NCBI GenBank assembly: GCA_041661765.1
Contig: JBAZTV010000003.1
Location: 79,914 to 143,913 of the forward strand
DNA: 64,000 nt
Origin: Candidatus Shapirobacteria bacterium
GTDB taxonomy: Bacteria > Patescibacteriota > Microgenomatia > UBA12405
Direction of reading: 5' to 3'
Shown here: in pieces, positions 10,588 to 37,229 of the stretch
Numbering within the stretch: position 1 is the stretch's first letter
Layout of the letters: each line of letters starts with the position of its first letter
Made by a program: the position numbers and the translations under genes
Notes under the pieces: model-generated
What the model was told of the DNA's origin: nothing
The model's database searches: none
What the model saw: the letters and a program-made list of their open reading frames with translations, nothing else

Positions 10588-10998
10588 ATGAGTAATCCTA
10601 GAGCTTTTATTAGTTTTGATTTTGACCATAATGAAACGGAAAAATATTTATTTATTGGTCAATCTAAAAATTCCAAAACACCTTTTGATATAGAAGACTG
10701 GTCTTCTAAGTCATCTCTACCTCAAAATCAGTGGGAAAGAATTATTGAAGATAAAATCAATAAATGTAACTTAATGATAGTTTTAGTTGGAAAAAATATG
10801 GCTTCAGCTTCAGGGGTAGCAAAAGAGATCTCTTTTGCTAAAGAAAATAACGTGCCATTTTTTGGAGTTTATGTTGACGATGCAAATACTTCTAATAACT
10901 TACCGTCTGATTTAGCTAGAAACAGAACAACAAACTGGGATTGGGACAATATTGCTTCTGCTATCAAACAAATGATGGAAGAAGGAAAAAATAAATGA
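10588..10998 (+). CDS. TIR-like domain protein (DUF1863 / MTH538-like TIR)
   Basis: N-terminal AFISFDFDH (the TIR beta-A 'FISY-' strand), then LMIVLVGKNMASASGVAKEISFA..NVPFFGVYVD, which matches the TIR-like pattern [S.S.WV..EI..A...PII.V]. Confidence 0.6.
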   Translation: MSNPRAFISFDFDHNETEKYLFIGQSKNSKTPFDIEDWSSKSSLPQNQWERIIEDKINKCNLMIVLVGKNMASASGVAKEISFAKENNVPFFGVYVDDANTSNNLPSDLARNRTTNWDWDNIASAIKQMMEEGKNK

Positions 10999-11933
10999 GA
11001 AAAGCATTAATTGTTGGAATTAACGATTATAAAGATTGTCCACTTTTAGGATGTGTTAATGATGCATCTTCTCTTTCTAGTATTCTTTCAAGTAATGGTG
11101 ATGGTTCCCCAAATTTTGATGTAATGCTTAAAACTGATATAAAAAATAAATCTGAATTAAAAACTCATATAAAAGAGCTATTTGAAGGAAATGTTGAAAC
11201 AGCTCTATTTTATTTTTCTGGTCACGGTTTTTTAAATAATCTTGGTGGATATATAGTAACACCAGATTATCAACCAAACGATGAAGGTGTCTCTATGAAT
11301 GAAATATTAACTTTTGCCAACCAATCGAAAGCACAAAATAAAATTATTATATTAGATTGTTGTCATTCTGGATCATTCGGATCTCCTCCTGAACAATCCG
11401 TTAGTATTTCTCAAATTACAGAGGGTTTGACTATACTTACTGCTAGTAAAGAAAATGAATCTGCTGTTGAAGAAAACGGACATGGAATTTTTACTAATTT
11501 ATTGTTAGGTGCATTAAGAGGTGAAGCATCAGACCTAATGGGTAATATTACTCCTGGAAGTGTATATTCCTATATCGACCAAGCTTTAGGCCCATGGGAT
11601 CAAAGACCAATTTTTAAAACTAATATTACTAAATTTACACCAATAAGAAATATATCCCCATTAATTCCACTTGATATCCTTAGAAAGATAACTTTATATT
11701 TTCCTACACCTCAAGAGGAATTTAAATTAGATCCTTCTTTTGAAGATTCAGATAAAAATGCCGATCTAAATAATGTTGAAATTTTTAAAAACTTACAAAA
11801 ATTTGAGAGAAATGGATTAGTAATACCTGTTGGTGAAGATTATATGTATTATGCTGCAATGAAATCAAAATCTTGTAAATTAACAGCCTTAGGTTGGCGT
11901 TATTGGGCATTAGTAGATAAAAATAGAATTTAA
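10995..11933 (+). CDS. caspase-like (peptidase C14 / CHAT-type) protein with about 150-aa uncharacterised C-terminal domain
   Basis: ALIVGINDY...L.GCVNDA, His in FYFSGHG and Cys in IILDCCHSG: a canonical caspase His-Cys dyad in the correct order and spacing. ATGA start/stop overlap with the TIR-like gene. Confidence 0.7.
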   Translation: MRKALIVGINDYKDCPLLGCVNDASSLSSILSSNGDGSPNFDVMLKTDIKNKSELKTHIKELFEGNVETALFYFSGHGFLNNLGGYIVTPDYQPNDEGVSMNEILTFANQSKAQNKIIILDCCHSGSFGSPPEQSVSISQITEGLTILTASKENESAVEENGHGIFTNLLLGALRGEASDLMGNITPGSVYSYIDQALGPWDQRPIFKTNITKFTPIRNISPLIPLDILRKITLYFPTPQEEFKLDPSFEDSDKNADLNNVEIFKNLQKFERNGLVIPVGEDYMYYAAMKSKSCKLTALGWRYWALVDKNRI

Positions 11934-11934
11934 T

Positions 11935-13275
11935 TTATTTTATATACAATCTCTTGTTGTGCAATGTAAATTTCGTTTTTATAGCTGATAATACTTGTTG
12001 CCTCTCCTCTACTGTCCCCACTTTTAAGGTATGAACTAGATATTCTTTAACCATATTTTTATCAATATGATTAAAGGCATCATAATCTATTTCTTTTAAG
12101 TTTCCACTTATATATTCTTCATTTAAAACTTCTGTTCTAAGTCGATGAAATCTATCAATATCTTTTTTAAGTTGATGGGCTAATTCAATTTCATTTAGTT
12201 TTAATTCATCAATGTGAGCCATTAATTGTTTAATTAAATCTTCTTCAGTAATATAAGGTTCGCTACATTGGTAATCTATTGATCTAGAGCAGTGATAATA
12301 AACATGTTTTCTAGCATCACCATTTAGAAGTTTCCGATATCTCTCCTCTCCTATTACTGAAGCCCCACAAGAACTACATTTACATAAATGTTTAAATGGG
12401 AAAACATTTTTGTTCCATTCTTTAGCTGGACAAATAAGTTGATATTGAACCTTATCAAATATTTCTTTAGTAATTAATGGTTCGTGATTTCCCTTATATT
12501 TCTTACCATCAAAACTAAATTCACCATAATAAAATGGATTTTTCAAAATGGCATAGATTTTACTTAAAGCAATTGGTTTACCACTTCTGGTAGTAAATCC
12601 AATATCATCCAACCATATTTTTAATACCCTACCACTGTAACCTCTTTCTGATACTTTAGTAAACATTAGTTTTACAGTTGGTGCTCTTTCTTTATCAATC
12701 TCTACATAACTAATTCTATTTTCATTCATTATATTTATATAACCTACAGGAGCCATATTAGGTCGCCATCCAGCTTCACATTTGGCTCTAAGCCCTCTTT
12801 TTACATTAATACCCCTATTATCATTTTCTAGCTTGGCTTGAGAGCATAAAATCATTAGTAAAAACTTTTCATTTGGGTTATTGGAAAATGATTGAGAAAA
12901 AGTCCGAATGGTTTTTAATTTTCCCTGATCCATTAGATCTACTAAGGTTCCAAGATCACCTGCATTTCTGCTCAGTCTATCAGGTGCCCAAGTTAAAATG
13001 GCATCAAATTCTCCACTTCGAATATCTATTAAAAGTTTATTAAAGACTGGTCGAAGCCCTGATGATTTGGCCGAATGACTTTCTTGTCTAACTTCTTTGA
13101 TAATTAATCCATCTCTATTGGCTAAATCCTTCATTTCCTTAATCTGGGAATCGATCGACATGGCTTGTCGCTCATCAGATTCGGTTGATTTACGAGCATA
13201 AAGACAATATTTTGTTTGCTCAATTTCCTGTATCTTTCCATCTTTTTCATTATTCATGATGGAACTATACCGCAA
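11935..13275 (-). CDS. large serine recombinase (resolvase/invertase N-domain + recombinase domain + Zn-ribbon)
   Basis: CLYARKSTESDERQAMSIDSQ (catalytic Ser in YxRxST), GEFDAILTWAPDRLSRN, and C-terminal CKCSSCGA..YYHC zinc ribbon. Confidence 0.85.
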   Translation of the reverse strand: MRYSSIMNNEKDGKIQEIEQTKYCLYARKSTESDERQAMSIDSQIKEMKDLANRDGLIIKEVRQESHSAKSSGLRPVFNKLLIDIRSGEFDAILTWAPDRLSRNAGDLGTLVDLMDQGKLKTIRTFSQSFSNNPNEKFLLMILCSQAKLENDNRGINVKRGLRAKCEAGWRPNMAPVGYINIMNENRISYVEIDKERAPTVKLMFTKVSERGYSGRVLKIWLDDIGFTTRSGKPIALSKIYAILKNPFYYGEFSFDGKKYKGNHEPLITKEIFDKVQYQLICPAKEWNKNVFPFKHLCKCSSCGASVIGEERYRKLLNGDARKHVYYHCSRSIDYQCSEPYITEEDLIKQLMAHIDELKLNEIELAHQLKKDIDRFHRLRTEVLNEEYISGNLKEIDYDAFNHIDKNMVKEYLVHTLKVGTVEERQQVLSAIKTKFTLHNKRLYIK

Positions 13276-13306
13276 CCATTACAGTAGTCTAGAAGATGAT
13301 TATTAT

Positions 13307-14794
13307 TTAATAAATATCAGACAAGTGACGAGAACCTCGATCATAAAAATTACCTGTCGTAAGGACATACATAGCTGGTGTTGGCTGATTATCTAACTCT
13401 AAAATTTTTAAAATTAATAAAGAAAATGCATCGGCAAGGTCGTCGTGTTTTTCGATTCCAAAACCAACTAATTGAGAAATCAATTCTTCGGCTCCTTTTT
13501 TAGGAAACAAAATTTTTCCTTGTTCAATTAAATGGGTAACTAAAGCTAACCTAGATCTTTTATCCTGCCCATTTACCTTTACTCCTTCACAATGAATATT
13601 ACGACTATTAAGATGTTGAATAATTGATTGTTGGTAACCAACATCTTCGACAAAAATTTTTGATTCTCTACCTAAAATTGCAGATATTTCTTCTATTTTA
13701 GCTACTGTCTGAGGAAAAGTTAGTCTTTGATTTACTGGATTTGGATAAATATATATTTCAAGTTTTTCTTTTCTTCCAAAAACTTTGGCAGTAATCATAG
13801 AGGTAAAATCAGCAGATTCTTTTTGAGAAATTGCCAAATCAATTCCAGTTCCAACCATACGAAAATCTCTTTTATCTCTTTCAATCCCTTCATAATATTT
13901 AATCCATTCTGGATGAACTAATCTATCAGCATCGGAAATAATTTTTAGTAAATACTCGCGATACCAAGCCGAATCTGTCCCTATAGATGCCTTTAATTTA
14001 TTGATAGCTTCCATATTGGGAAATTTTCCAGGCCAAGCAATAATTTCATTATCATCTATTAAAGGATAAGCAAGAAATTTACTATCACTTTGTTTATTCT
14101 TTTCCATCATGGCTTTAAGTCTCATTAATAAACAATCTTCGTGGAGTAAATTGCCGACGATTATAAACTTAGTTGAAATATCACCTATTGGTAGAATCTC
14201 ACCTGTTAACCATTGAAAAGTTTTATCTCTACTTTCTCTGGTTTTTATACTATTAAGGTCTTCAACATCATCACATACAACTAAGTCTGGTCTATATTGA
14301 CCATGTCGAACTCCTCTAATACTTTGTTCAGTTGAGGCAATAGTAATTCGAGCATCAAAATTAGAAAGCACTATTGAAGTAGCACCCCATTCGTCACTAA
14401 CTTCCTGAAATGGACCAATATCATTTTTTAATAATTCATTAGTTTCCAACTCTCTTTTAATATTCGATAAATGTAATCTAGCTTGAGATTGAGTCTGACT
14501 AACAATTAATACAAATTTCTTTTGTTGACAACCAGTTATTGCCCAAATCGGATAAGACAAACTCATAATAGTAGACTTACTTGAACCACGAAATGCAACT
14601 AATACCGCCATTTTTAAATTTATATCTTCAGTAATAGAAAACATTTCATTGTGAAATTGAGCAAAAGGATAACTAATATAATGACTAAAATAGATAGTAA
14701 AAAACCAAAAATGACTGTTTTTGGCTAAGGCTCTTCGAACGGACCTTTTCTTTTTTATTTCAATTAGTTCATTTTCGTTTAATTTTTGAATCAT
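13307..14794 (-). CDS. phage terminase large subunit (Terminase_6-like ATPase + RNaseH-like nuclease)
   Basis: Walker A-like VAFRGSSKST, Walker B LVVCDDVEDL, and C-terminal nuclease acidic residues (GTGIDLAIS..., EKHDDLADAF). Confidence 0.75.
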   Translation of the reverse strand: MIQKLNENELIEIKKKRSVRRALAKNSHFWFFTIYFSHYISYPFAQFHNEMFSITEDINLKMAVLVAFRGSSKSTIMSLSYPIWAITGCQQKKFVLIVSQTQSQARLHLSNIKRELETNELLKNDIGPFQEVSDEWGATSIVLSNFDARITIASTEQSIRGVRHGQYRPDLVVCDDVEDLNSIKTRESRDKTFQWLTGEILPIGDISTKFIIVGNLLHEDCLLMRLKAMMEKNKQSDSKFLAYPLIDDNEIIAWPGKFPNMEAINKLKASIGTDSAWYREYLLKIISDADRLVHPEWIKYYEGIERDKRDFRMVGTGIDLAISQKESADFTSMITAKVFGRKEKLEIYIYPNPVNQRLTFPQTVAKIEEISAILGRESKIFVEDVGYQQSIIQHLNSRNIHCEGVKVNGQDKRSRLALVTHLIEQGKILFPKKGAEELISQLVGFGIEKHDDLADAFSLLILKILELDNQPTPAMYVLTTGNFYDRGSRHLSDIY

Positions 14795-15207
14795 TTTTGT
14801 TTTTCTTCAATTAATTCCGGTAAATTTTCAGGTAAAACTGAAGCAAGTTTTAAGGCTTTCATCACTAAAGCTTCTTGTTCTGGAGTTAATTGTTCATCAT
14901 CATGTTTCAATTTGGCGGTTACTTCTATTTTGGTGGCATAAGCTTGATGATGGTTTTTTAACCAAAAAATTATCGCAGTTAAATTTTTATCCCTAATAGC
15001 ACTCATTAATTGAGATTCAGCCATATCATTTACTAATTCATTACCATCCAAAAGAGCTTCGTCTACTTGAGTAGAAAAATTTTCATCATCTTTTTTCCAG
15101 CGATAAAAAGTGGCCCGACCAACACTTACTTTTTCACAAGCTATTTGAATAATTGGTGTTTTTTTTAATTGTTCAATTAATAATTGTTTGTTTTTGTCAG
15201 TTTTCAT
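14791..15207 (-). CDS. terminase small subunit-like HTH protein
   Basis: IACEKVSVGRATFYRWKKDDENF helix-turn-helix. Sits immediately upstream of, and overlapping, TerL. Confidence 0.45.
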   Translation of the reverse strand: MKTDKNKQLLIEQLKKTPIIQIACEKVSVGRATFYRWKKDDENFSTQVDEALLDGNELVNDMAESQLMSAIRDKNLTAIIFWLKNHHQAYATKIEVTAKLKHDDEQLTPEQEALVMKALKLASVLPENLPELIEEKQK

Positions 15208-15935
15208 ATTTTTTTTAGTTTTTTAAAACGATCAATAATTACTTGACAATATTCTGGATCTATTTCAACCATTAGACATTTTCTTTTTGTTTGTTCACAA
15301 GCAATCAAGGTCGACCCCGAACCACCAAAACAGTCATAAACATAATCACCAATTTGGGAACTGTTTAGGATTAAATGACGAAGAAGTGAAATTGGTTTCA
15401 TGGTTGGGTGAAGTGGACTTTTATTAGGTTTTGGAAAAGCTAAAACACTTTTATCTTTACTTTTAAAAAACTGATGAGTACCATACCAACCATAAACTAT
15501 TAATTCATGTTGAGGCAAGTAATCCATTCTTCCAATAACTGCATGATTTTTGACCCAAATTAATAACTGACAAAATTTAAAATTCGAGTCATCTAAAGCA
15601 TTTTTTAAAGCAAACAACATTCGATCAGAATTAAAAATATAGTAGGTATTTTTGGGTGACAAAAACGGTTTAACAATCTCTAACCATTGCTGAGTAAATT
15701 GTTTATACGATTGTTCAGATTGAACCTGGTCGTTGGCAATTATTTTTCTATCTTTTTTTGACTTTGCAAAGCAATTTTTACTCTCAACATAAGCAACACC
15801 ATAAGGAACATCTGTTAATATTAACTTGATTTTTTTATCTGCTAATAATTTTTCTACAGATGATTTATCAGTGGCATCACCACACAAAAGTAGATGATCT
15901 CCGAGAGCAATTAAGTCTCCTTTTTTAATTAACAT
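15204..15935 (-). CDS. DNA methyltransferase (N6-adenine/N4-cytosine, beta class)
   Basis: LILTDVPYG (D-[PV]PY motif IV), then C-terminal FGGSGSTLIACEQTKRKCLMVE (motif I FxGxG). Confidence 0.8.
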   Translation of the reverse strand: MLIKKGDLIALGDHLLLCGDATDKSSVEKLLADKKIKLILTDVPYGVAYVESKNCFAKSKKDRKIIANDQVQSEQSYKQFTQQWLEIVKPFLSPKNTYYIFNSDRMLFALKNALDDSNFKFCQLLIWVKNHAVIGRMDYLPQHELIVYGWYGTHQFFKSKDKSVLAFPKPNKSPLHPTMKPISLLRHLILNSSQIGDYVYDCFGGSGSTLIACEQTKRKCLMVEIDPEYCQVIIDRFKKLKKI

Positions 15936-17223
15936 ACTTTACCTCCTGACCAGTTAATTTTTTATAACGGGAAACAATTAGGTCACAAAATATTGGTTCA
16001 TATTCAACCATTAAACATTTCCGTTTTAATTGTTCACAAGCAATAAGTGTAGAACCTGATCCACCAAACAAATCAACAACAGTATCGCCAATATTAGTAC
16101 ACCTTCTCAGGGCTCTTTCGTGAAGTGTTGGGCTTTTTTCAGTTGGATGTTCATAATCACCTCCGGGTAATCTTTTAACTAACCAAATATTGAGTAAATC
16201 CAAAATGTCGTCTATTGTCCTATTTCCTGAGCCAATTTCTTTGTTTAAAATTTCATTTAAGTTTTTCGGATTTTCCGAAATTGTTGGTTTACCAATTACC
16301 CCATAGATACAAGCTTCGTAACTTTTATTAAAAGCAATGTTAGGTGTAGGTGAAAAACCATTTTTAATCCATAAACAAACCCTTTTGTTTTCTATTCCGA
16401 TTTCTTTATATAAATCTTGAATTAGGCCGATATGATTTTCGTCGTTCCAATAAAAAATATGACAATCTGGCTTGGAGATTGTTAAAACATTTTGAATTGT
16501 CTTTTTCAAAAACTCTTTATATTCATCATCAGTTTTATTATCATTGGTTTGTCCACCATATTTTCCCTTACCACCAATTCCTTTATTGTAATCCAAAGAA
16601 ATATTATAGGGTGGGTCACAATAGACCATAGATACGGACTTATTTGATGTTAATTTTTCAACAACTTTTAAATCAGTACTATCTCCACAAACCAATAGAT
16701 GTTGACCAAGTTGGATAATGTCTCCTAATTTTGTTTTTGGAATTTTTATTTTTTCTAATTCTTTTTCTGTGTCAAAATTATCATCCTCAGTTTCAAGATT
16801 TTCATCCCAAATTTTAGATAAATCATTATTGTCAAAACCAATGTCCATCAGCATTTCAATTTGAAAATTTTTTAGAAGTTCAAAATTCCAATCACCAGTG
16901 TTGCGATTTAATCTAAGGTTCAATTCTTTTTCCTTTTCAACATCTGGGACATTGACATAAACTACTGGCACCTCTGCAAAACCTAACTGTTTTGCTATCT
17001 CTAATCTAAAATGTCCACCAATAACAATATTCTTACGATTTATTGCAGAATTCGCAATAATGGGATCTATTAACCCAAATTTTTTAATACTTTGCTTTAG
17101 TCCGCTTATTGCTTCATCAGACCATTTTCTTGGATTGTATGATGATGGTTTTAAATCTTTGACAGGTATATAGATGACTTTGAGTTGGGTTCTTTGATTC
17201 ATATAAACCAAAGTTACCACCAC
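15925..17223 (-). CDS. ParB-like nuclease domain fused to DNA methyltransferase (phage-type ParB-MTase)
   Basis: N-terminal ParB-N (IPVKDLKPSSYNPRK...IGGHFRLEIAKQLG), VYCDPPYN (DPPY), and C-terminal FGGSGSTLIACEQLKRKCLMVE, almost identical to the downstream MTase. Confidence 0.8.
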   Translation of the reverse strand: MVVTLVYMNQRTQLKVIYIPVKDLKPSSYNPRKWSDEAISGLKQSIKKFGLIDPIIANSAINRKNIVIGGHFRLEIAKQLGFAEVPVVYVNVPDVEKEKELNLRLNRNTGDWNFELLKNFQIEMLMDIGFDNNDLSKIWDENLETEDDNFDTEKELEKIKIPKTKLGDIIQLGQHLLVCGDSTDLKVVEKLTSNKSVSMVYCDPPYNISLDYNKGIGGKGKYGGQTNDNKTDDEYKEFLKKTIQNVLTISKPDCHIFYWNDENHIGLIQDLYKEIGIENKRVCLWIKNGFSPTPNIAFNKSYEACIYGVIGKPTISENPKNLNEILNKEIGSGNRTIDDILDLLNIWLVKRLPGGDYEHPTEKSPTLHERALRRCTNIGDTVVDLFGGSGSTLIACEQLKRKCLMVEYEPIFCDLIVSRYKKLTGQEVKYVN

Positions 17224-18163: not shown

Positions 18164-21100
18164 ATGAGTATAAATAACCTCCCAAAACAAATTCTTAACT
18201 ATTTTGCCACTTTTACTGAAACAAGATTTAATTTCCGACGACTAATTAACTATAAATGGACTAATAATGAACTAACCCTCGATTTTTCTTTATTTCCTGA
18301 ATTTCAAAATCAAATTCTAGAAAAAATAAAAACTGGAGATTTGTCTCCCGTTACTATTATTCAAGATAAATACACTGTTGTTATTCCAAAAGAGCAAATT
18401 ATTTCTGAAGTACAAAAAATTGTTTCTAAAAAATTAGATAGTTCTTATCTTAATCAGTCTATTAGTAATGAAGAATCTAATATTAAAGATGAATCGGAAG
18501 ATAATTCAGAAAATATTGACGAACAAAAGGAATTGGCAAAAAAAGAAGCCTTGCGTTTATACAATCTTGAACTCCGACGTCAATTTGAAACCAGTTTAAA
18601 CAATCTTCAAGAAAAATTAACTAACCAGAAAAAAGACGAATTACACATTGAACATACTCCACCGTCAATTTTTGGCATAACTAATTATATAAATCAGAAC
18701 TTTGAAAAAATTAAGCGTCTAGCACAAGACTATATAGATTCTGAATCATACATTAATTCAATAAAGGATTATTTTGAAAAAAATGTTGACGACGTTGTTA
18801 TTTATGACCTTTTTTACAACTTACAAAAATATGCCGACTTTGCTCAACTTGGAACTTTGTATTTATTTTTTCACAATTTAGAGAAAAGTTCTGAAAGTTA
18901 CCCTGTTTATTTTGTTGAGGCAGAATTTAAAAATAATACCACTGAGATTACTTTATCTTTTCCAAGAAATTTAATTTTACTTAATACTCCAGCCATCAAT
19001 TATTTTAAATTTGATAGTGTATTAACCATACCTCGAGCCTCCTCTCCCGCATTAGCAAAATCTCACTTAGGCGGTATTGAATCATTTTTCCAAAATCAAT
19101 ATGGTTTTCAAACACCATTTGTTTTAGAATCTGCCTTTGATCCAATTACTCATGCAAAAGAAGAATACCCACAAATAAAAAGTCGAATTGGGTTACAAAC
19201 TGTAATAAACGAAGATAAAAAATTGCTTGATTATTCAGAACTTATGACTAATCTTGAGTTAGGCGAAGATAGTAAATTTTCTGGATTTATTGATCAATAT
19301 ATTAGAGGTACTGTTCCAAATCATCAAGAAGAAGTTGATCAAGTATTTAAAGACAATTTTCCATTAGAATCTCCAAAACGATATATTTCAGATAGTCCAA
19401 TTCCATTAAACAATTCACAAAAAAGAATTCTTTTGGCTCTCGCTAATCAAAAAAATAATATTATTGTTGTTGATGGCCCTCCTGGCACTGGAAAATCTCA
19501 CACTATTGCGGCTTTGACTTATTGGGCTAATGAACAAAAAAAATCAGTAGTCGTCACTTCGCACAAAAAAGAAGCTTTAGACGTTATTGATCGAATGTTG
19601 ACAGATAAGTTTAAAAGTCTACATCCTCAAGCAAAACCTTCTATTGTCAGAATGGATAAAGAAACAGGTTCTGCTAATAATTTACCTAATACTTTGCAGA
19701 CAAGTGTTATAAATGCGGCCAATGAAAGAAATCTAAACTTTAATTACCAAGCATTAAAAAGTGATACCGACAACCTTGAGCAAAAATTAATTACTACTGT
19801 TGAAAATAAACTTAAACAAAATATAGATTATCAACAACAAATTAAGGATTTTGTTAATTTAAATGTTATAGAAACTGAACTTTGTACCGACTCAAATATT
19901 TCGACAGTTATTTCTTCCATCACTACCCCTAAACAAATTACTGACTTTGCAAAATTAAAAGGGTTTTTAGACTCTGACACTTTAAATATTTTTTCAGATA
20001 TTAGTTTAGATGAATATCAATTTATTCTGGAACATCAACAAAATATTCCTGATTTTATTGATGCTTGCGAAAAACTGAATCAAACTTCAGCAGACATAAT
20101 TGATGAAAAAATAAATATTAATGAAATTCCACAGAAATTTCTTGATTTAATAGTTTTACTTCAAAAATATTTTAAACCCAATATTAGTCTTGGAAAACTA
20201 ACAATTAAAGATACTGTAGGTGGAATATTTCCTAAAATTTTTGGAAAAGGACCTAAGGAAAATCAATTAAAAGAATTATTATCGCAATTAAAATTGCTGG
20301 AACATAAAAGTAATTTAAACGATATTGCTCAATATATTGGAAAGGACGTGAACTCTATAACTATTGAGGAAATTTCTTTAAGTATTCAAAAAATACAATT
20401 CGCTCTATCAATTAAACCTTATCTAAATTTAATTTCATCTTATAAATCTCTTCCTAATAATAGTCAAAAAAATATCACCCAAATTTTTGACACAATGAAG
20501 AAATTTAGTCAGGCACCACAAATATTTGATCCGGAGATTTCTTCTGTATTAACCCAACTTTATGCAACTTATGGATCAATTTTAGAAACAGTTGATGTGG
20601 TTGAAGATAATTTAAGTAGTTTATCAAAACTATTTAGCACTGATAATTTGGCTACTAAAATTTGGCAATGGATCCAACTTCACTCCCAACTGTCACAAAA
20701 AGAAAATTCTTTGTCACTTAATAAAAGTGATGTTGAGACTTATTTTAGACTTCAACAAAAAGAGGTAGAAAATATTAATGATCAAAGATTAAAGGATCTT
20801 AATAATCATTTGGGTGAAATTGCTCGTATAAAAGTTTCTTATGAAGGTGGTAAAAGATTTTCTATGGATGAAGCCAAAGTGTTACTCTCTTCTGTTTCTT
20901 GTATTATTGCTGAACCATCAACAATTTCTAAATTTTTCCCAATGCAAGAGGATTTAATCGATGTCCTTATTATTGACGAAGCCTCTCAAGTTTCTATTGC
21001 CGATTCAATCTCTCTTATTTTAAGAGCTAAACAAGTAGTTATATTCGGAGATGAGTATCAGTACGGTGCTGTCAGTGCCCAAAATGTCAGCTCTAAGTAT

Positions 21101-22414
21101 TCGACCAGTTACTTTACTGAAATAGTTTCAGCTTATGCTGATGATTATCAAACAGCTGTTTCAGAAAAAGCGAAGAAAGAATTAGTAGACGAAATATCCA
21201 AAGACATTAACCCCGACGAACAACAAAGCGATACTCTTCTTAAACCACAAGATGGCACAATTCTTTGGCTTAAAACCTTTGATATCCGCACTTCAACATT
21301 AACTTTTGCTAAGGCTATTGCCAATTACAGCACATCTCTTAAAGAACATTTCCGTAGTTTTCCAGAAATTATTGGTTATTCTAATGAAACATTTTATAAA
21401 ATTGCCCAAATGGAACTTTTGGTTAATCGAATCAGAACTAAACCAATTGGTGAAGTGTTGCAATTTATTAAAGTTGACTGTCAAGGTAATGCTGGAGCTA
21501 ATGTAAATTTAGATGAAATTGAAGCAATCGGTAATGATATTCAAAAAAGACTTGATAATGGTTTTATTGGAAGTATTGGTATTATAACTTCATTTAAAGA
21601 ACAACAATCCCGAATGGAACAGTATTTAAATGAGCGTTTTAATATGCCAATTTTGACCCGTGATCATAAAATAGCAATTTGGTTTGTGGGAGATGTACAG
21701 GGCGAAGAAAGAGATTTAATCTATTATTCTTTTGTTGAGGCTAAAGAATTAAACAGTGCTAATTTAGCTAGTATTTATCCAGTAATTGGTGGTACCGCCG
21801 ATAGTATTCGTAGTTTAAAAATGCAACGTCTAAACGTTGGTTTTAGCCGTGCCAAAGATACGATGGTTTTTGTACACAGTCAACCAATTGAGCAATTTAG
21901 TAATACTCGTTTAGGTGATGCTTTAAAGCACTATCATCACGAATTAGAAATTAACCAAGCTAATGATTTCTTTATTGAAGATGAGTCAGTTTTTGAATCT
22001 CCAATGGAAAAGAAAATTTATAGTTTATTGACACAAACAAAATTTGTTCAAGATAATCGTGAACATTTAAAAATTATTCCTCAGTTTGATATTGGAAAAT
22101 ATATTGCTCGTGAATATGCTGTTTCAATTCCTAAATACCGAACAGACTTCTTAGTTTCTTATTCAAATGGTGGCAAAGAAAAAGTGTTGATTTTGGAATA
22201 CGATGGACTAGAATTTCATTTTAAAAATCCATCTGAAGTTGATCATTTAAATTTTTCTCAAGAATACATTGATTATGATATTTCTCGTCAATTAGAACTT
22301 GAAAGTTATGGTTATCACTTTTTACGCCTCAATAAGTTTAACCTTCGACCTCAAAATTCTGGTGAAACTGAAGTTGATGTCTTGAACAATTTATTGATGG
22401 ATCGATTAAAATAA
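18164..22414 (+). CDS. 1416-aa Upf1/DNA2-like SF1 helicase with about 420-aa unknown N-terminal domain and C-terminal restriction-endonuclease-like (DUF559/Vsr-like) domain
   Basis: Walker A IIVVDGPPGTGKSHT (~aa 440), Walker B VLIIDEASQV (~aa 935), AAA_12-like GDVQGEERDLIYYS and R-finger region. C-terminal ...KVLILEYDGLEFHFKN..., a PD-(D/E)xK-type E-x-D...H pattern typical of DUF559 tails. Confidence 0.8.
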   Translation: MSINNLPKQILNYFATFTETRFNFRRLINYKWTNNELTLDFSLFPEFQNQILEKIKTGDLSPVTIIQDKYTVVIPKEQIISEVQKIVSKKLDSSYLNQSISNEESNIKDESEDNSENIDEQKELAKKEALRLYNLELRRQFETSLNNLQEKLTNQKKDELHIEHTPPSIFGITNYINQNFEKIKRLAQDYIDSESYINSIKDYFEKNVDDVVIYDLFYNLQKYADFAQLGTLYLFFHNLEKSSESYPVYFVEAEFKNNTTEITLSFPRNLILLNTPAINYFKFDSVLTIPRASSPALAKSHLGGIESFFQNQYGFQTPFVLESAFDPITHAKEEYPQIKSRIGLQTVINEDKKLLDYSELMTNLELGEDSKFSGFIDQYIRGTVPNHQEEVDQVFKDNFPLESPKRYISDSPIPLNNSQKRILLALANQKNNIIVVDGPPGTGKSHTIAALTYWANEQKKSVVVTSHKKEALDVIDRMLTDKFKSLHPQAKPSIVRMDKETGSANNLPNTLQTSVINAANERNLNFNYQALKSDTDNLEQKLITTVENKLKQNIDYQQQIKDFVNLNVIETELCTDSNISTVISSITTPKQITDFAKLKGFLDSDTLNIFSDISLDEYQFILEHQQNIPDFIDACEKLNQTSADIIDEKININEIPQKFLDLIVLLQKYFKPNISLGKLTIKDTVGGIFPKIFGKGPKENQLKELLSQLKLLEHKSNLNDIAQYIGKDVNSITIEEISLSIQKIQFALSIKPYLNLISSYKSLPNNSQKNITQIFDTMKKFSQAPQIFDPEISSVLTQLYATYGSILETVDVVEDNLSSLSKLFSTDNLATKIWQWIQLHSQLSQKENSLSLNKSDVETYFRLQQKEVENINDQRLKDLNNHLGEIARIKVSYEGGKRFSMDEAKVLLSSVSCIIAEPSTISKFFPMQEDLIDVLIIDEASQVSIADSISLILRAKQVVIFGDEYQYGAVSAQNVSSKYSTSYFTEIVSAYADDYQTAVSEKAKKELVDEISKDINPDEQQSDTLLKPQDGTILWLKTFDIRTSTLTFAKAIANYSTSLKEHFRSFPEIIGYSNETFYKIAQMELLVNRIRTKPIGEVLQFIKVDCQGNAGANVNLDEIEAIGNDIQKRLDNGFIGSIGIITSFKEQQSRMEQYLNERFNMPILTRDHKIAIWFVGDVQGEERDLIYYSFVEAKELNSANLASIYPVIGGTADSIRSLKMQRLNVGFSRAKDTMVFVHSQPIEQFSNTRLGDALKHYHHELEINQANDFFIEDESVFESPMEKKIYSLLTQTKFVQDNREHLKIIPQFDIGKYIAREYAVSIPKYRTDFLVSYSNGGKEKVLILEYDGLEFHFKNPSEVDHLNFSQEYIDYDISRQLELESYGYHFLRLNKFNLRPQNSGETEVDVLNNLLMDRLK

Positions 22415-22418: not shown

Positions 22419-24443
22419 ATGACTCAAATTAAACTAACCATTGAAGAAAAAGCCCAAATTATTGAAGCACTCAATCAAGATTTAGAACCATCAGCTGATT
22501 TACTACCTAAAATATTTCCTGGTACCGCTGAAAAATTTGATGTAGCCTCTCTTGATCGAGCTAAAATTCCTACCCTTGAATATGCTGGTAAAAGAACTAA
22601 AGCAGCAATCCTAGCTGAAGGTACTGCCGGTATTGGTGCAGCCCCTCTTCAAACTGTCCGTTGTTTTGGAAATGCCACTGAAAATGATTGGAAAAATTTA
22701 ATTGTTCAAGGTGACAATCTTCAATTTTTAAAAACTTGTTATAAAAATACTGATCCATTAATTATGGATAAGATTAAGGGTAAAGTTAAACTAATTTACA
22801 TTGATCCACCATTTGCAACTAAAAGTGATTTTGGAGGTAAAGATGGAGAATATAGTTATACCGATAAAGTTGATCGAGCCCACTTCCTTGAAACACTCCG
22901 TGAACGCCTTATCTATCTTCGTGAACTCCTCGCTGACGATGGTTCAATCTATGTCCATTTGGACCAAAAAATGAGCCATTATGTAAAAATAACAATGGAT
23001 GAGATATTTGGAAAAGATAATTTTAGAAATGAAATTGTTTGGACTTACAACGGAAAAGGATTGGCTAATGCTAGAAGTGGTTATGTAAAATACTTTGCCA
23101 ACATTTTATTTTATTCTAAGTCAAATAAAACCGAAATAAATAATAAAATTGATAAAGTTTCTGATTCTGTCATTCAACGTTTTGGAAGATATTTAAATGA
23201 ATTTAATCAAATTTCATTTGCATCTTTGAAAAAAGGAAATGAAAAATCAGAATTAGAAAAAAGTAGAAATAGATTTATTAAAGAATTTAATAGAGAACCT
23301 GAAGATGATGATATTGCGGTTGATTATAGTAAGGGTATGTTTTTAAAAGATATTTGGGATGATATACCGATAGTAAGAGAGAATAAAAAATATTCTGAAT
23401 ATCAAAATTATCCAACACAAAAGCCCGAACTCTTATTGGAAAGAATCGTGACTGCTTCATCTAATGAGGGTGATATTGTAATGGATTGTTTTTCGGGGTC
23501 TGGGACAACAGTTGCTGTGGCTGAAAAATTAGGGAGAAGATGGATTGGATGTGACTTTGGAAAACATGCAATTTATACAATTCAAAAAAGAATTCTTAAT
23601 ATTGCGGAAAGTAAAAAACTTGGAAAAGACTTAAAGGCTGGTGAAAAACATGGATTAAAACCAAAACCATTTTGTGTTGTGTCATCTGGAGCTTATGATT
23701 TTTCCCATGTTATGGATTTACGCAAAAATAAAGATACTTATATTGATTTTGTCTTGGCTCTTTTCCAACTCGTCCGTGACAATGAAAAATCAGCTAAATT
23801 TCGATTATCAAATATTTACTCTCTAAAAGATGGTAATCCAGTCGAAGTTTATCCTGTTTGGGACGATCAGTATCTTAAAGATGTTCGTATTGATGAAATT
23901 TATTTACAAGGAGTGATTGATCAAGCCGGTGGTCGGTTGCAGGGTGATTATTACATTATTACTCCTGAATCGTGTGCCAATATTGGTGATACTACTCTTA
24001 AAAACCAAGATAATAAGGATGTTAATTTTAAAATTCTTTCCTTCCCTTATAAAATTTTAGAGGCTATCTCTCAAAAACTAACAATAGAAGAACAACCTAG
24101 TTCTTCCCAAAATATTAATAATTTAGTTACTTCTACTTCTTTTTACTTTAATGAAGACGTTGAAATTGAAGTCGTTAAAACAGATAGTGGTCTTAAAATA
24201 ACTAAATTTGATAGCAAAATATTAGATGGTGCTGGTAATCGTTTTGAAGGAATTTCTGGATTAGCGATGTTACTTATCGATCTTAATTATGTTTCTAATA
24301 AGCCATTTGATATGGATGTGGCTGTATATGCCAAAGAAATTGGTGAAGATGGAACTTGTAAAGTTGATGAATTAACTCCAAGTGTGGGTGTTATTGCTAT
24401 TGATAAACACGGTAATGAAAGTAAACCGTTTCAAATAAAATAA
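22419..24443 (+). CDS. mod: Type III restriction-modification methyltransferase (Mod) subunit
   Basis: LIYIDPPFAT (motif IV DPPF) precedes MDCFSGSGTTVAVAEKLGRRWIGCD (motif I): the beta-class order of Type III Mod. 674 aa, with a central variable (target-recognition) region. Confidence 0.8.
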   Translation: MTQIKLTIEEKAQIIEALNQDLEPSADLLPKIFPGTAEKFDVASLDRAKIPTLEYAGKRTKAAILAEGTAGIGAAPLQTVRCFGNATENDWKNLIVQGDNLQFLKTCYKNTDPLIMDKIKGKVKLIYIDPPFATKSDFGGKDGEYSYTDKVDRAHFLETLRERLIYLRELLADDGSIYVHLDQKMSHYVKITMDEIFGKDNFRNEIVWTYNGKGLANARSGYVKYFANILFYSKSNKTEINNKIDKVSDSVIQRFGRYLNEFNQISFASLKKGNEKSELEKSRNRFIKEFNREPEDDDIAVDYSKGMFLKDIWDDIPIVRENKKYSEYQNYPTQKPELLLERIVTASSNEGDIVMDCFSGSGTTVAVAEKLGRRWIGCDFGKHAIYTIQKRILNIAESKKLGKDLKAGEKHGLKPKPFCVVSSGAYDFSHVMDLRKNKDTYIDFVLALFQLVRDNEKSAKFRLSNIYSLKDGNPVEVYPVWDDQYLKDVRIDEIYLQGVIDQAGGRLQGDYYIITPESCANIGDTTLKNQDNKDVNFKILSFPYKILEAISQKLTIEEQPSSSQNINNLVTSTSFYFNEDVEIEVVKTDSGLKITKFDSKILDGAGNRFEGISGLAMLLIDLNYVSNKPFDMDVAVYAKEIGEDGTCKVDELTPSVGVIAIDKHGNESKPFQIK

Positions 24444-24444
24444 T

Positions 24445-27333
24445 ATGGAAGATAAAAAATTTACCAAACCAAAGGGTAGACGATTTAACACTGTTGATCG
24501 AATCAATTTATCTCAGCATGTTTTAAATATAAATCTAAAAAAAAGTAGTCGTAAAAAATTTAATTTTAATGAAATTGAAGATTTTGTTAGGGCTATTGCT
24601 GACGGCAGACAATATCAATATGATGCCATCAGGGATGTAATGACCTATCTGTGGGGTGGTGGTTATCAAGATGTAACTGAATTAGCTAAAGAAAATTTTA
24701 CAGTAAATGAACATTTACGAGAAAAATTTGGAAATGAAGAATTAATGCTTGGTAATTTACCTCTCCCCGATCGTCTATCTGGAGTGGTTCATATGGCCAC
24801 CGGTACGGGTAAATCATATATTATTTATGCGGTAGCTTATTTGTCTATTGTTATGGGTTTGACTAAAAGAGTATTGGTGCTAGGACCATCCTCAACTATT
24901 ATTGAAGAAGGTTTGCGAGATAAATTTCAAAAATTTATGGCTCGTGATGATTGGAATAAAAAACTTCCCAAAGAATATCAAGGTAAGGCTATTGAATTAT
25001 TAAAAAATAATGATGTTATTGAAGACAACAGTATCACTATTGAAAATATTAATGCTATCTATACTGTCGGTGGTATTCGTGACACTTTATTTAAAGGAGT
25101 TAATGAAGTTTTAGTTTTAGGAGATGAAATTCATCATGCTTATTCTCATTTAAACTTCAATCAAACCCAAAAAAGACTGGAATTAGATCAAAATGTTGAT
25201 GAAAATGTTGGTAAAGATAGCGATGAAAAATCTGAGAGATTATGGATGAAGTTTTTAAGACAATATCCTGAAATTACTAGACATATTGGTTTTACAGGTA
25301 CTCCATATAATCAGGATAATTATTTTGCTGATGTTATTTATGATTACAATATTAGAGCGGCTATAAATAACAAATATATTAAAGATATTAATCCAATTAT
25401 TGGAACTGAATCTGATCAAGGTGATGTTCAATGGACTACTGAAAAAAGATTTGAAGTTGTTTATGAAAACCATCTCGATAATTCTAATAAATATTCCTAT
25501 ACAAAAAATGATGTTCGCAGGGTTAAACCAATTACTGTTTTTTATTGTCCTACTCGAAATAATGCTCAATCAAAAACAGAAGAATTTATTCGCTTTTTAA
25601 TTAAAAGAGAAAAAGAAGTTCTTCATTCCACTTTATCTGATGCAGAACTAGACCAAAAGATACGCCAAAAGGTAATTTGTGTTATTACGGGTATTACAGA
25701 ATCTACATATAAAAACCAACTTGACCATGTTGAAGAAACTGATCCAACTAAGATTGGAGGTTTAGTTGAATTTATTTTTTCTGTCGGTAAATTACTTGAA
25801 GGTTGGGATGTTGACAATGTGTTTCAGATCGTCCCAATGGAAGAAAGAATTTTTAATTCAAAATTATTAATATCACAAGTTTTGGGTCGTGGTTTAAGAA
25901 TTCCTCGTTGTTTAAAACCTGTTGATATCGCCACTAATTACCCAATGTTGACGGTTACTAATCATGAAAAATTTGCTGACAAAATTAAAGAAATTCTTAA
26001 TGCTGTTATCAACTCTGATATGTTCATTGTTTCTGAACCATTGGAAATTAAAGACGATCCAAATTGGCGAGGAAAATATCACTTTTCTCTTTTTAATTTA
26101 AATTATCTTTCTGGTGAAAAATTTGAAGATGCTCCAGTAGAACCAAAACAATTACAAAATAGACAATTAATTTTAGAAAAGTTTGATCTAAAAGAAAATT
26201 TAACTATTTTTTTTGATAAAGGTAAAAGAGAATACCGTTTAAAAAAACAAACTGTCACATTAGACTCAATTGTTGATTCTTTATATAGACGTTTTAAAGG
26301 TAGAGAATATGAAGAAATTCGGTTTGATTTTGGAAACGGAGAAGAAACTCGATGTCCTACTGAAGATGAAATTAGAAATACTATTCTAGTAGCAATGGAA
26401 AAAGCCGGAATTTCTAAGGATGGTTTGGCTGATGATAATAAAAAACAAATTGATTTATATTTTAATCAATTTTTACCAAAAGGATCAAAAATTCGAATTC
26501 CTATCAATGTGACTGGTAATGTTTTTCCTATAAGTAGTCAAAAAATTGAACGTAGTAGTCTTCGGGTTGGTGAATTAGAACGAGACGCAACTGCTTTTAT
26601 GAGTGAAAATTATCAACAAGAAGTTGATGAAAAAACCAAAGCGTTATTAAAATATATACAAGAAAATAGAAAACAATTATTAAATGAAGGTCAACAAATG
26701 CTTGGATTTACTGATCCAAATCAGCTATTGGTTAAATATCAAGATAATGTTAAATCGCTAATTAATGGTGATCCCCGACCACCTTACATCGTAACAAATT
26801 CATCATTTAAAACACCTCAAAGCGTGGTTTTAGTTTCATATTATCCAGAAAAAGAATTTTCATTTAGATTAATTGAAAATAGTTTATATCTCGATTCTTG
26901 GATTAAATCTCCAGATAAAGGATTTTATTCAATTGAATATGAATATTGGAAAGGCGGAAAAGATAGAGTATTAAGAAGTTTTAACCCTGATTTTTTTATA
27001 AAAATTGATCTCGATAGGTATATTAAAACTTTAAAGGAAAAAGGTGAAAAAGACAATTTAAAAAATCTTATAGAACTACAAGAAAAAGGAATTGAAACTA
27101 TTATTAAGGTAGTCGAAATAAAATCTGATGAGGATGATGATGAAGCTACTCCAGCTAAAGCTGAAAAAGCCAAAATACATTTTAATTCTCTGAATCAAAA
27201 ATTGAGCGAGAGTAATCCAATAAACTTTGACAAAAAATACCAGTCAGAATTAAAACAATTTTATGTTTTTGATTTATTAAAACCAAACGGATTTATTGAA
27301 TGGTTTTCTAAATTAAAAACTGGAAGTTTATAA
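24445..27333 (+). CDS. res: Type III restriction enzyme (Res) subunit, SF2 DEAH helicase + C-terminal nuclease region
   Basis: Walker A HMATGTGKSY and DEAH-type motif II LVLGDEIHHA, with helicase motifs downstream. Start is 1 bp after the Mod stop, the typical mod-res operon. Confidence 0.8.
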   Translation: MEDKKFTKPKGRRFNTVDRINLSQHVLNINLKKSSRKKFNFNEIEDFVRAIADGRQYQYDAIRDVMTYLWGGGYQDVTELAKENFTVNEHLREKFGNEELMLGNLPLPDRLSGVVHMATGTGKSYIIYAVAYLSIVMGLTKRVLVLGPSSTIIEEGLRDKFQKFMARDDWNKKLPKEYQGKAIELLKNNDVIEDNSITIENINAIYTVGGIRDTLFKGVNEVLVLGDEIHHAYSHLNFNQTQKRLELDQNVDENVGKDSDEKSERLWMKFLRQYPEITRHIGFTGTPYNQDNYFADVIYDYNIRAAINNKYIKDINPIIGTESDQGDVQWTTEKRFEVVYENHLDNSNKYSYTKNDVRRVKPITVFYCPTRNNAQSKTEEFIRFLIKREKEVLHSTLSDAELDQKIRQKVICVITGITESTYKNQLDHVEETDPTKIGGLVEFIFSVGKLLEGWDVDNVFQIVPMEERIFNSKLLISQVLGRGLRIPRCLKPVDIATNYPMLTVTNHEKFADKIKEILNAVINSDMFIVSEPLEIKDDPNWRGKYHFSLFNLNYLSGEKFEDAPVEPKQLQNRQLILEKFDLKENLTIFFDKGKREYRLKKQTVTLDSIVDSLYRRFKGREYEEIRFDFGNGEETRCPTEDEIRNTILVAMEKAGISKDGLADDNKKQIDLYFNQFLPKGSKIRIPINVTGNVFPISSQKIERSSLRVGELERDATAFMSENYQQEVDEKTKALLKYIQENRKQLLNEGQQMLGFTDPNQLLVKYQDNVKSLINGDPRPPYIVTNSSFKTPQSVVLVSYYPEKEFSFRLIENSLYLDSWIKSPDKGFYSIEYEYWKGGKDRVLRSFNPDFFIKIDLDRYIKTLKEKGEKDNLKNLIELQEKGIETIIKVVEIKSDEDDDEATPAKAEKAKIHFNSLNQKLSESNPINFDKKYQSELKQFYVFDLLKPNGFIEWFSKLKTGSL

Positions 27334-27392: not shown

Positions 27393-28910
27393 ATGAATTT
27401 TAATAAAACTCTCTCTAAATCTGAATATATGCTTTTTCTTAAGCATCCAGCTTGGTTGTGGCTTAAAAAATACGATAAAAACAAATTACCTCCAACAGAT
27501 GATGCTTTGCAAGCAATGTTTGATGATGGAAATTTATTTGAATCTTATGCCAATAAATTATTTCCAGATGCAGTGAAACTTGGTTTTGAAAGTTATGATG
27601 ATTATTTAAATCTACCTAATAGAACCATAGAAGCAATTAAAAATAAAGTTGAAGTTATTTTGCAAGGCAGATTGGAGTTTGAAGGTAAAACTTGTATTTT
27701 TGATGTGTTACAAAAAGTTGGAGATAATGAATTCAATTTAATTGAAATAAAGGCCAGTACAAAAGCAAAAACAGAACATGAATATGATTTGGCTTTTCAA
27801 TTAATGGTTTTAGAAAAATCTGGTTATTCTGTTAAAAATATCTTGGTTATTCATGCTAATAATGAGTATGTGAGAGACGGTGAAATAGATGTTAAGGGTA
27901 TTACTGGTCAGACTGATGTCACCGAGAAAGTAAAAGCCTTAAAAGAAATCACTGAACAACAAGTTGATTTAGCTTTTGAAGTATTAGATAGTGACAAATG
28001 TCCAGACTTATCACCTCGATATGTTAATAAAATAGGAGTCGCTGATGTTAATTGGTTTGCAGACTGGATGGAAGTATATAAAAACTTGAAACCAAATGAT
28101 GACCCTTACAATATTTATGAACTTAGCTACCCTACCGCAGAACAAATTGGAAAAATTGAAGATGCTGGGATAATCAAAATAAATGATATTCCTGATGAAC
28201 TTGCTCTTAGAGGTAAACAATTAGCTCAAATAAAAACAACCAGAGAAAATAAAAGAATTATTGATAAAGATAAAATAAAATCTTTTATTGATACTTTTCA
28301 ATACCCTCTTTATTTTTTTGATTATGAAACTTTTTCTTCAGTGATTCCCCAATTTGATGGTTGTAGTCCTTACAAAGATTATCCTTTTCAATACTCCCTT
28401 CATATAATGGAATCTCCTAATTCTGAATTAAAACATTTGGAATACCTTCATAATGAAAAAACAAATCCGATGCCTAAACTACTTGAGCAACTCAAGAAAG
28501 ACATAGGAGAATCAGGAACAGTTCTGGCTTGGAATATGAGTTATGAAAAAGGGCGTAATGAGTGCATGGCAGCTCTTTATCCAGAATATGCAGATTTTTT
28601 AAAGCAATTAAATGAAAGAATAAACGATCTAATGATTCCTTTTTCGAATATGTGGTTTTTTGATAAAGATTTTTTTGGGAGTGCCTCTGTAAAGAAAGTT
28701 ATGCCCGTTATGGCTCCAGAGTTAAGCTATAAAGAATTAGATGTAGGAGACGGTTTGTTGGCTAGAAGAACATGGACTCAAACAGTTTTAGAAGATAAAA
28801 ATCAACCTAACCGTAGTAAAATTATAGAGAATTTGAGTAAATATTGTACACTTGATACTTTTGCTATGGTAAGAATTTTAGAAGAATTAAAAAAAATTAT
28901 TAACGAATAA
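27393..28910 (+). CDS. DUF2779-like protein: N-terminal PD-(D/E)xK (RecB/Cas4-like) nuclease fold + C-terminal RNaseH-like/DEDD-like region
   Basis: N-terminus LSKSEYMLFLKHPAWLWLKK resembles the DUF2779 start signature (from memory). FDVLQKVGDNEFNLIEIKAST has a D...E-x-K arrangement. Later FFDYETFSS resembles an exonuclease DxE. Confidence 0.5.
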   Translation: MNFNKTLSKSEYMLFLKHPAWLWLKKYDKNKLPPTDDALQAMFDDGNLFESYANKLFPDAVKLGFESYDDYLNLPNRTIEAIKNKVEVILQGRLEFEGKTCIFDVLQKVGDNEFNLIEIKASTKAKTEHEYDLAFQLMVLEKSGYSVKNILVIHANNEYVRDGEIDVKGITGQTDVTEKVKALKEITEQQVDLAFEVLDSDKCPDLSPRYVNKIGVADVNWFADWMEVYKNLKPNDDPYNIYELSYPTAEQIGKIEDAGIIKINDIPDELALRGKQLAQIKTTRENKRIIDKDKIKSFIDTFQYPLYFFDYETFSSVIPQFDGCSPYKDYPFQYSLHIMESPNSELKHLEYLHNEKTNPMPKLLEQLKKDIGESGTVLAWNMSYEKGRNECMAALYPEYADFLKQLNERINDLMIPFSNMWFFDKDFFGSASVKKVMPVMAPELSYKELDVGDGLLARRTWTQTVLEDKNQPNRSKIIENLSKYCTLDTFAMVRILEELKKIINE

Positions 28911-34725: not shown

Positions 34726-34728
34726 AAA

Positions 34729-36066: not shown

Positions 36067-36106
36067 TAGTGTTATTTTTTTTAAGCTCAAGTTTTTAAAA
36101 TTAGTC

Positions 36107-36811: not shown

Positions 36812-36814
36812 TTT

Positions 36815-37204: not shown

Positions 37205-37229
37205 AAGATAATATAATCTTATCTAAATA

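Follow-up and report, generated by a model that had tools for sequence, protein, structure and literature searches.

A helicase-nuclease gene precedes mod and res in a conserved three-gene, Type III-like restriction-modification cassette of uncultured bacteria

We analyzed a stretch of 64,000 nucleotides (nt) from Candidatus Shapirobacteria bacterium (assembly GCA_041661765.1, contig JBAZTV010000003.1, positions 79,914 to 143,913; hereafter the window) with a focus on the large gene at 18164-22414, which encodes a predicted helicase fused to a predicted nuclease. The initial annotation had noted here a giant open reading frame (ORF) whose product carries the motifs GPPGTGKSHT and IIDEASQ about 500 amino acids (aa) apart. 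Both motifs are present as described, as is the reported placement between phage-type genes and a Type III restriction-modification (R-M) system, with a terminase, methylases, and a recombinase encoded upstream and mod and res downstream. What did not hold up was the view of a lone single-polypeptide system merely lying beside Type III R-M: the gene is instead the conserved 5′ member of a helicase-mod-res cassette. In the window, the three genes are separated by 4 nt (helicase stop to mod start) and 1 nt (mod to res). The cassette and the parts of its first gene are as follows.

18164..22414, + strand: helicase-nuclease gene, gene 1 of the cassette; a single unbroken ORF from the ATG at 18164 to the stop at 22414, 1416 aa
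18164..19399, + strand: N-terminal family-specific domain, aa 1-412; without Pfam match, modeled by AlphaFold2 (AF2)
19475..19498, + strand: Walker A motif GPPGTGKS, aa 438-445; six of eight residues invariant, P440 and T442 conserved in at least 90% (homolog alignments)
19739..20878, + strand: insertion in RecA1, ~380 aa, aa ~526-905; all-helical in a low-confidence model, the most variable part of the protein
20969..20989, + strand: Walker B/motif II, IIDEASQ, aa 936-942; invariant, as is GDEYQYGA beyond it (962-969)
21323..21874, + strand: RecA2 domain, AAA_12, aa 1054-1237; contains NVGFSRAK (1224-1231)
21986..22348, + strand: predicted C-terminal Vsr/MTES_1575-type nuclease of the PD-(D/E)xK clan, aa ~1275-1395; D1328, E1345, D1347, and H1352 invariant
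22419..24443, + strand: Mod, 674 aa, predicted beta-class amino-methyltransferase; Pfam N6_N4_Mtase, E=8e-49; starts 4 nt past the helicase stop
24445..27333, + strand: Res, 962 aa; Pfam ResIII; superfamily 2 (SF2) ATPase motifs and a C-terminal nuclease motif

A sequence search with the helicase-nuclease returned more than 1100 homologs, with full-length matches at 49-98% identity from many phyla, which excludes a chance reading frame at 18164-22414. Nearly all of the best 120 are full length (~1400-1460 aa; 49-98% identity), and they stem from Omnitrophota, Syntrophia/Desulfobacterota, Patescibacteria, Chloroflexi, and Methylococcales, among others. The protein is predicted to consist of four parts: an N-terminal domain, an Upf1-like superfamily 1B (SF1B) core, a helical insertion that splits this core, and a C-terminal nuclease. 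Pfam placed AAA_11 at residues 415-555 (E=2.5e-16) and AAA_12 at residues 1054-1237 (E=1.7e-13); in the translation, the extended motif GPPGTGKSHT (residues 438-447) lies ~495 aa ahead of IIDEASQ. By sequence, the nearest solved relatives of the core in the PDB are Upf1, IGHMBP2, Sen1, and a 5′-3′ RNA helicase-like protein. Pfam and the PDB relatives thus both agree with the earlier assignment of an SF1 Upf1-like core with AAA_11/AAA_12, which we predict to belong to SF1B.

Conservation of individual residues was judged on an alignment of 42 homologs, together with a profile of identity in windows of 40 aa. The RecA2 motifs, like motif II, proved invariant. In the profile, the RecA1 insertion (526-905) showed 0.23-0.49 identity to the window protein. 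An AF2 model of residues 400-1416 was poor (predicted local distance difference test [pLDDT] 59; predicted template modeling score [pTM] 0.39) and served solely to indicate the helical nature of the insertion; Foldseek matches obtained with it were meaningless (TM ~0.1). Simple-sequence repeats of the phase-variation type were found in none of helicase, mod, or res.

The predicted nuclease contains the motif VLILEYDGLEFHFKN (residues 1341-1355), and D1328, E1345, D1347, and H1352 are invariant in all 42 aligned homologs. In the window protein itself, the match to MTES_1575 stays below the Pfam threshold (E=0.06 for the full protein, 5.7e-4 for the isolated C-terminus), and so do the Pfam matches across the family: with their C-terminal 179 aa, all 14 members compared matched MTES_1575 and 13 of them DUF559. 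The distant homolog P0143 clears the curated cut-offs for both domains (MTES_1575, 39.4 vs 38.2 bits; DUF559, 33.2 vs 20.6 bits). The catalytic motifs also align, albeit with a weak score, with those of the bona fide MTES_1575 domain of an Hhe-like protein from Bosea; PDB sequences gave no match to a profile of the C-terminus. MTES_1575 was originally defined as a Vsr-fold restriction-endonuclease domain (PMC3710099). With matches throughout the family and P0143 above the cut-offs, we accept at the family level the predicted DUF559/Vsr-clan nuclease that the initial annotation had proposed.

At the other end of the protein, Pfam gave no match before residue ~414. The AF2 model of the N-terminal domain was confident (pLDDT 81; pTM 0.71) and comprises a long helix (115-160) and an alpha/beta part (211-347), low confidence being confined to residues 1-27 (pLDDT <50, with the domain folded alone). 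Foldseek searches with this model against PDB and BFVD gave no match better than E=0.5, and a hidden Markov model (HMM) of the domain matched only 147 clusters among 1.84 billion representatives. In all HMM matches of at least 1320 aa, the domain lies N-terminally or nearly so; the others are shorter sequences or fragments. Comparisons by hhalign of the N-terminal profile with the DUF4011 region of the Bosea Hhe-like protein (probability 0.2) and with a relative from Priestia (probability 6.8) were single-sequence comparisons, too weak to decide remote homology. With Pfam, Foldseek, and the narrow HMM distribution in agreement, the N-terminal ~410 aa (~420 aa in the initial annotation) appear to form a novel domain, confidently modeled and without known relative. 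Residues 1-40 (LNYFATFTETRFNF..., window 18164-18283) are among the best-conserved parts of the helicase-nuclease (80% identity to the window protein), and residues 81-120 form a variable acidic linker. Given that residues 1-27 model poorly alone though residues 1-40 are nearly invariant—as would befit a segment that needs a partner in order to fold—this stretch may be a docking element.

Mod and Res, for their part, look like a complete Type III-like enzyme. The Mod motifs follow the order IV-TRD-I, with DPPF at aa 129, a hypervariable target recognition domain (TRD) at aa 211-330 (column identity 10-26% in 85 orthologs), and FSGSGTT at aa 358. Its PDB matches are the solved Type III Mods (EcoP15I Mod, 6k0w Mod, and Mbo45V), and the DPPF motif suggests N6-methyladenine (m6A) as the product. 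Res carries the SF2 motifs MATGTGKS (117-124), GDEIHHA (226-232), TGTP, and QVLGRGLR, which are invariant in 25 and 12 orthologs, along with a nuclease motif of the PD...ExK type, NPDF (847-850) ... EIK (891-893), that is likewise invariant in the orthologs. No sequence match of Res was found among all PDB chains, EcoP15I Res included, and the Type III Res models of PADLOC (REase_III) matched only weakly (E~1e-11). Relatives of Res with 28-31% identity, encoded on plasmids of cultured Mucilaginibacter and Curtobacterium, belong to plain Mod-Res pairs without the helicase, arguing that the helicase-nuclease is an addition to a self-sufficient pair rather than a replacement for a lost activity.

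The linkage of the three genes was seen from both ends. Of the 36 genome loci in which the sequence continues for 6 kb or more past the helicase, 33 encode an orthologous Mod there, co-oriented with the helicase. Conversely, when metagenomes were searched with Res and loci with 7 kb or more of sequence ahead of it were considered, Mod was present at all 28 loci and the helicase at 25 of them. Helicase, N6_N4_Mtase, and ResIII occur in one order and on one strand in every contig examined for distant homologs, and relatives with far lower scores by the N-terminal profile—P0143 (1637 aa) and P0136 (1521 aa), ~48-49% identical in the helicase core—also precede mod and res. The outer flanks were different at every locus compared, so the conserved unit is the three genes and not the island. 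We conclude that helicase, mod, and res form a conserved cassette headed by the helicase-nuclease gene, with reciprocal linkage in ~90% of informative loci. Within the window, no terminator-like site was found on the + strand between helicase, mod, and res; counts from promoter and terminator scans equaled those of shuffled controls in this AT-rich DNA and are uninformative.

The two outer proteins of the cassette have also diverged together. Across 38 non-redundant loci, pairwise distances of the helicase and of Res were tightly correlated (Mantel r = 0.967, slope 0.89), and none of 2000 permutations reached as high a value. This congruence persists across a junction whose genes are repeatedly exchanged. 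Gap lengths between helicase and mod are bimodal, with 21 loci not exceeding 116 nt and 25 spanning 0.9-8.6 kb (cargo-bearing examples are L004:12626-19546, L022, L028, and L030). The commonest cargo, present at 13 loci, consists of Schlafen AlbA_2 plus HATPase_c_4, in part with a helix-turn-helix (HTH) domain. Further same-strand cargo includes a YhcG/DUF1016 nuclease, an OLD-type AAA_15 with TOPRIM, AAA_15 with RloB, AbiEi/AbiEii, Abi_2, Fic, Bro-N, and a reverse transcriptase. The helicase-mod junction is thus an insertion hotspot for defense and toxin genes. That helicase and Res remain congruent despite this turnover is our main argument that the pair is held together by function and not by proximity alone.

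Some of the ORFs at the junction are uncharacterized, such as a 98-aa protein that recurs in four loci, and could be mined as defense candidates.

In a scan of one genome per species, helicase-nuclease loci were present in 58 of 185,579 species genomes, all of them metagenome-assembled. The three-gene cassette occurs almost exclusively in uncultured bacteria. Neither the viral contigs of IMG/VR nor the phages in GenBank yielded a copy of the helicase.

On the basis of the linkage, the co-divergence, and the conserved catalytic residues in all three proteins, we lean toward the view that the helicase-nuclease is an accessory third component of a Type III-like R-M system, acting in coupled DNA processing after restriction. 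Type III cleavage is ATP-dependent, requires two inversely oriented unmethylated sites, and takes place ~25 bp from a site. In the scheme we envisage, Mod2-Res would mark self DNA and would recognize and cut unmethylated invader DNA in this usual manner. The SF1B helicase-nuclease—presumably moving 5′→3′, by homology to Upf1, IGHMBP2, and Sen1—would then be recruited, perhaps via its N-terminal domain, load at the break or nick, and unwind and cut the DNA. A single, repairable Type III break would thereby be turned into irreversible degradation, amounting to a RecBCD-like post-restriction step built into the system. A more far-reaching version, which we offer only tentatively and consider rather doubtful, is that the cassette represents a distinct class of three-component restriction enzyme: a sliding Mod2-Res would find unmethylated DNA, nick or cut it, and hand it to an unwinding SF1B helicase-nuclease docked via the new fold of aa 1-410, which would then shred the invader processively, with no need for RecBCD. 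If true, such a built-in step might suit small-genome lineages (candidate phyla radiation/Patescibacteria, Omnitrophota).

Several points weigh against an accessory role in restriction. Where ~10 kb of sequence past the helicase is available, three loci out of 24 lack Mod, and a Priestia megaterium plasmid encodes a distant relative with neither Mod nor Res within 9 kb, so this type of protein can exist alone. About half of the loci carry unrelated defense or toxin genes between helicase and mod, and the resulting long gaps mean that tight translational coupling is not required. A further point comes from the Eco86II/BspHIV-type systems, in which mod-res is immediately preceded by an extra, highly conserved helicase-like ATPase gene of unassigned role, a linkage seen in more than 500 genomes (PMC8259958). 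In Eco86II, the one such case examined experimentally, the ATPase was dispensable for methylation and missing from the partially purified active enzyme (PMC8259958), so that a stable ternary complex is not implied. Finally, the polarity of the helicase, the substrate of the nuclease, and the contacts between the partners are inferred from homology only.

Two alternatives deserve weight, the first being an autonomous, Hhe- or Nhi-like single-protein defense that hitch-hikes with Type III R-M on a mobile defense island. The combination of an SF1 helicase and a nuclease in one chain resembles single-gene systems, and PADLOC returned low-scoring, partial matches of the helicase-nuclease to MkoA, MkoC, PDC-S37, and Hhe, with the helicase core matching Hhe, MkoA/MkoC, and PDC-S37 weakly. 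The solitary Priestia relative and the cargo often inserted between helicase and mod would also fit, as would the finding that the extra ATPase of Eco86II is dispensable for cutting (PMC8259958). A hitch-hiker, however, would hardly be expected to show ~90% linkage from both directions, a fixed order and orientation with the helicase always 5′ of mod, and almost perfect co-divergence with Res across a junction whose cargo keeps changing, nor to remain within a three-gene unit whose outer flanks vary by locus. We consider this explanation unlikely.

The same linkage and co-divergence apply to the second alternative, namely that the helicase-nuclease is coupled to R-M but does another job: as an extra motor or regulator of Res, as a guard against phage anti-restriction, or in self-protection or repair of accidental host cuts. 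Vsr-type nucleases are nicking enzymes in repair, and the ~380-aa helical insertion, being the most variable part of the protein, could be an arms-race surface. With respect to a motor, Murray et al. posed the question of whether, in Eco86II-type systems, the extra ATPase adds to the translocase activity of Res (PMC8259958). The ATPase and nuclease motifs of Res are complete, however, leaving no lacking activity for such a motor to supply, and neither Pfam nor Foldseek of the N-terminal model recognized a sensor or reader domain, although the initial annotation had tentatively suggested a sensor in the N-terminal region. A job of this kind, too, strikes us as improbable. A housekeeping repair or RNA-decay helicase (RecD-, Dna2-, or Upf1-like), by contrast, is effectively refuted even though the closest solved sequences are Upf1, IGHMBP2, and Sen1: the models for RecD (TIGR01447, 29.8 bits vs 310) and IGHMBP2 (TIGR00376, 40.8 vs 349) scored far below their cut-offs, only the 58 species genomes carry the family, and core-genome synteny is absent, with differing outer flanks and defense, toxin, or mobile-element neighbors throughout—all in keeping with the defense role favored in the initial annotation.

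The helicase-nuclease is always found amid defense, toxin, and mobile-element genes. In the window, the cassette lies within an island of ~27 kb (roughly 10.5-38 kb) that is bounded by housekeeping genes, with MreB and PBP2 upstream and SAICAR synthetase, malic enzyme, and serine hydroxymethyltransferase (SHMT) downstream. GC skew is positive inside ~10-36 kb and negative outside, changing sign at ~10000 and ~36000-38000, which matches the switch of coding strand at the island edges. Two features flank the cassette.

11935-17223, − strand: five-gene module encoding a ParB-methylase, a methylase, a small-terminase-like HTH protein, a large terminase, and a large serine recombinase
27393-28910, + strand: Cas4-like/DUF2779 nuclease gene, 59 nt past res; Pfam DUF2779 (E=2e-39) and Cas_Cas4

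The five-gene module adjoins helicase-mod-res in at least four independent loci at 45-64% identity and in either orientation (L065:304-5583, L025:4626-9870, L106:2-3490, and L068). Neither in the window nor in L065 is it followed by genes for a portal or capsid, and the module may be a small mobile element or satellite carrying the cassette, rather than a product of random prophage decay. In L071, res is immediately followed by a homolog of the Cas4-like gene (54% identity); further homologs occur close to the cassette in L007, L025, L046, L068, L110, and L113. The Cas4-like gene is an occasional fourth neighbor whose membership in the system is uncertain; its position beside res is worth recording given the published link between UvrD-Cas4 and Type III systems.

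Other genes of the window merit brief mention. A ThsB-like TIR protein of 136 aa (Pfam ThsB_TIR; PADLOC ThsB, E=7e-10) overlaps a caspase-family peptidase of 312 aa (Peptidase_C14; PADLOC caspase, E=9e-22) by 4 nt (10588-11933, + strand). Type IV Thoeris consists of a TIR and caspase-like pair (bioRxiv 10.1101/2024.10.24.620036; PMC13243611). The TIR-caspase pair is accordingly labeled here as a candidate second defense system of the island. Adjacent FtsK-like fragments at 34195-35751 (+ strand), one of 176 aa with the FtsK alpha domain only and one of 340 aa with a gamma domain N-terminal to a partial motor, are unusually arranged; they may stem from a gene rearrangement or encode a translocase of a mobile element at the edge of the island. 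Large ORFs of 717, 423, and 1020 aa (29763-33868 and 52289-55351, + strand) have no Pfam or PADLOC match; the first two lie inside the island downstream of the cassette, adjoined by a 257-aa ORF with a sub-threshold Pfam match to DUF3142 only. Between L068 and the window, the 257-aa ORF is only 82% and the 717-aa ORF only 59% identical, although the neighboring cassette reaches 96-99%. Elsewhere, in Candidatus Peribacteria, a helicase ortholog (L020:1463-4516) contains seven in-frame stops under table 11 and aligns over its full length. Its stops fit the alternative genetic code, with stop-codon reassignment, that has been described for the lineage, and an intact gene is probable.

We compared the cassette with known systems, starting with the single-protein helicases suggested by the initial annotation, a kinship that did not survive closer comparison. 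Hhe is a single-gene defense with the layout DUF4011-helicase-Vsr/MTES_1575-DUF3320 that acts alone. The window family shares the AAA_11/AAA_12 core followed by an MTES_1575-type nuclease, as confirmed in the Bosea plasmid example, but differs in being tied to mod and res and in lacking DUF4011 and DUF3320, for which Pfam gave no match at E<=1; against NCBIfam NF042953 (Hhe), the protein scored 54 bits vs a cut-off of 2000. Mokosh is defined by an SF1 helicase with, or fused to, a nuclease of the phospholipase D (PLD) family (MkoA+MkoB, or MkoC); a PLD domain was found neither in the helicase protein nor in its neighbors, and the matches to MkoA (104 bits) and MkoC (89 bits) are partial. ProA (NCBIfam NF058533) matched short stretches only, at 86.6 bits vs a cut-off of 1500. 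Nhi has an N-terminal nuclease followed by a C-terminal SF1 helicase, and we set it aside by domain order only, the predicted nuclease of the window protein being C-terminal and its N-terminal domain having no nuclease family match. No Nhi model was among the PADLOC matches at E<=0.01, although whether the library contains one was not checked.

With canonical Type III enzymes (EcoP15I, EcoP1I), the cassette shares the IV-TRD-I order of Mod, the SF2 motifs and C-terminal PD...ExK motif of Res, and the mod-res gene order. It differs in that Res has no detectable match to EcoP15I Res and in its conserved third gene of 1416 aa, set against the two-product Mod2Res; the two-gene definition does not describe loci of which ~90% of the informative ones carry a third gene 5′ of mod.

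Published descriptions of the family were not found in literature searches, and those made by domain name retrieved only the original domain definition. Three reports describe comparable arrangements. Like the window cassette, Eco86II-type systems have an extra helicase-like gene immediately 5′ of mod-res. Its product was called SF2-like by the authors and lacks PD-ExK or other nuclease motifs (PMC8259958), whereas the window protein has a predicted SF1B core, a nuclease of the Vsr type, and a novel domain at its N-terminus; the two are told apart by description. The Eco86II type moreover yields N4-methylcytosine and occurs in cultured Proteobacteria, in contrast to the DPPF motif of the window Mod, which suggests m6A.

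UvrD-Cas4 fusions adjoin Type III mod and res at loci that also hold Schlafen-like ATPase-HTH genes (PMC5704561). Both features recur here: a helicase-nuclease fusion sits in a conserved Type III mod/res neighborhood, and genes of the same Schlafen-like kind are the commonest cargo. The proteins themselves are not orthologous, with an SF1A UvrD and a Cas4/RecB nuclease there as opposed to an SF1B Upf1-like core and a Vsr/MTES_1575 nuclease here. The third arrangement is that of Bad from Geobacillus, a DNA2-like SF1B 5′→3′ helicase-nuclease always encoded beside a Type III-like Mod and proposed to belong, as a subunit, to a novel type of DNA-unwinding and DNA-degrading restriction enzyme (PMC7430649). 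The window family likewise joins an SF1B helicase to a nuclease next to a Type III-like Mod, but the nuclease of Bad is an N-terminal Fe-S RecB-type domain, whereas that of the window protein is C-terminal and Vsr-type, its N-terminus being occupied by another, novel domain.

In the textbook view, Type III enzymes consist of two subunits and slide along DNA without unwinding it. Three papers have noted unrelated helicase or helicase-nuclease genes tied to Type III mod/res without finding their role, and the window family would be a fourth, independent recruitment of a helicase partner, with unusually clean linkage. Reciprocal co-occurrence of ~90% and a Mantel r of 0.97 argue for a general need of Type III-like restriction for a DNA-processing partner. 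Helicase-mod-res is a well-defined three-gene unit in which this need can be probed with clear point mutants, and the family contributes a confidently modeled domain of 410 aa without known relative as well as a hotspot for defense and toxin genes at the helicase-mod junction. The cassette is thus a new, non-orthologous variant of the published theme of Type III R-M with a helicase partner.

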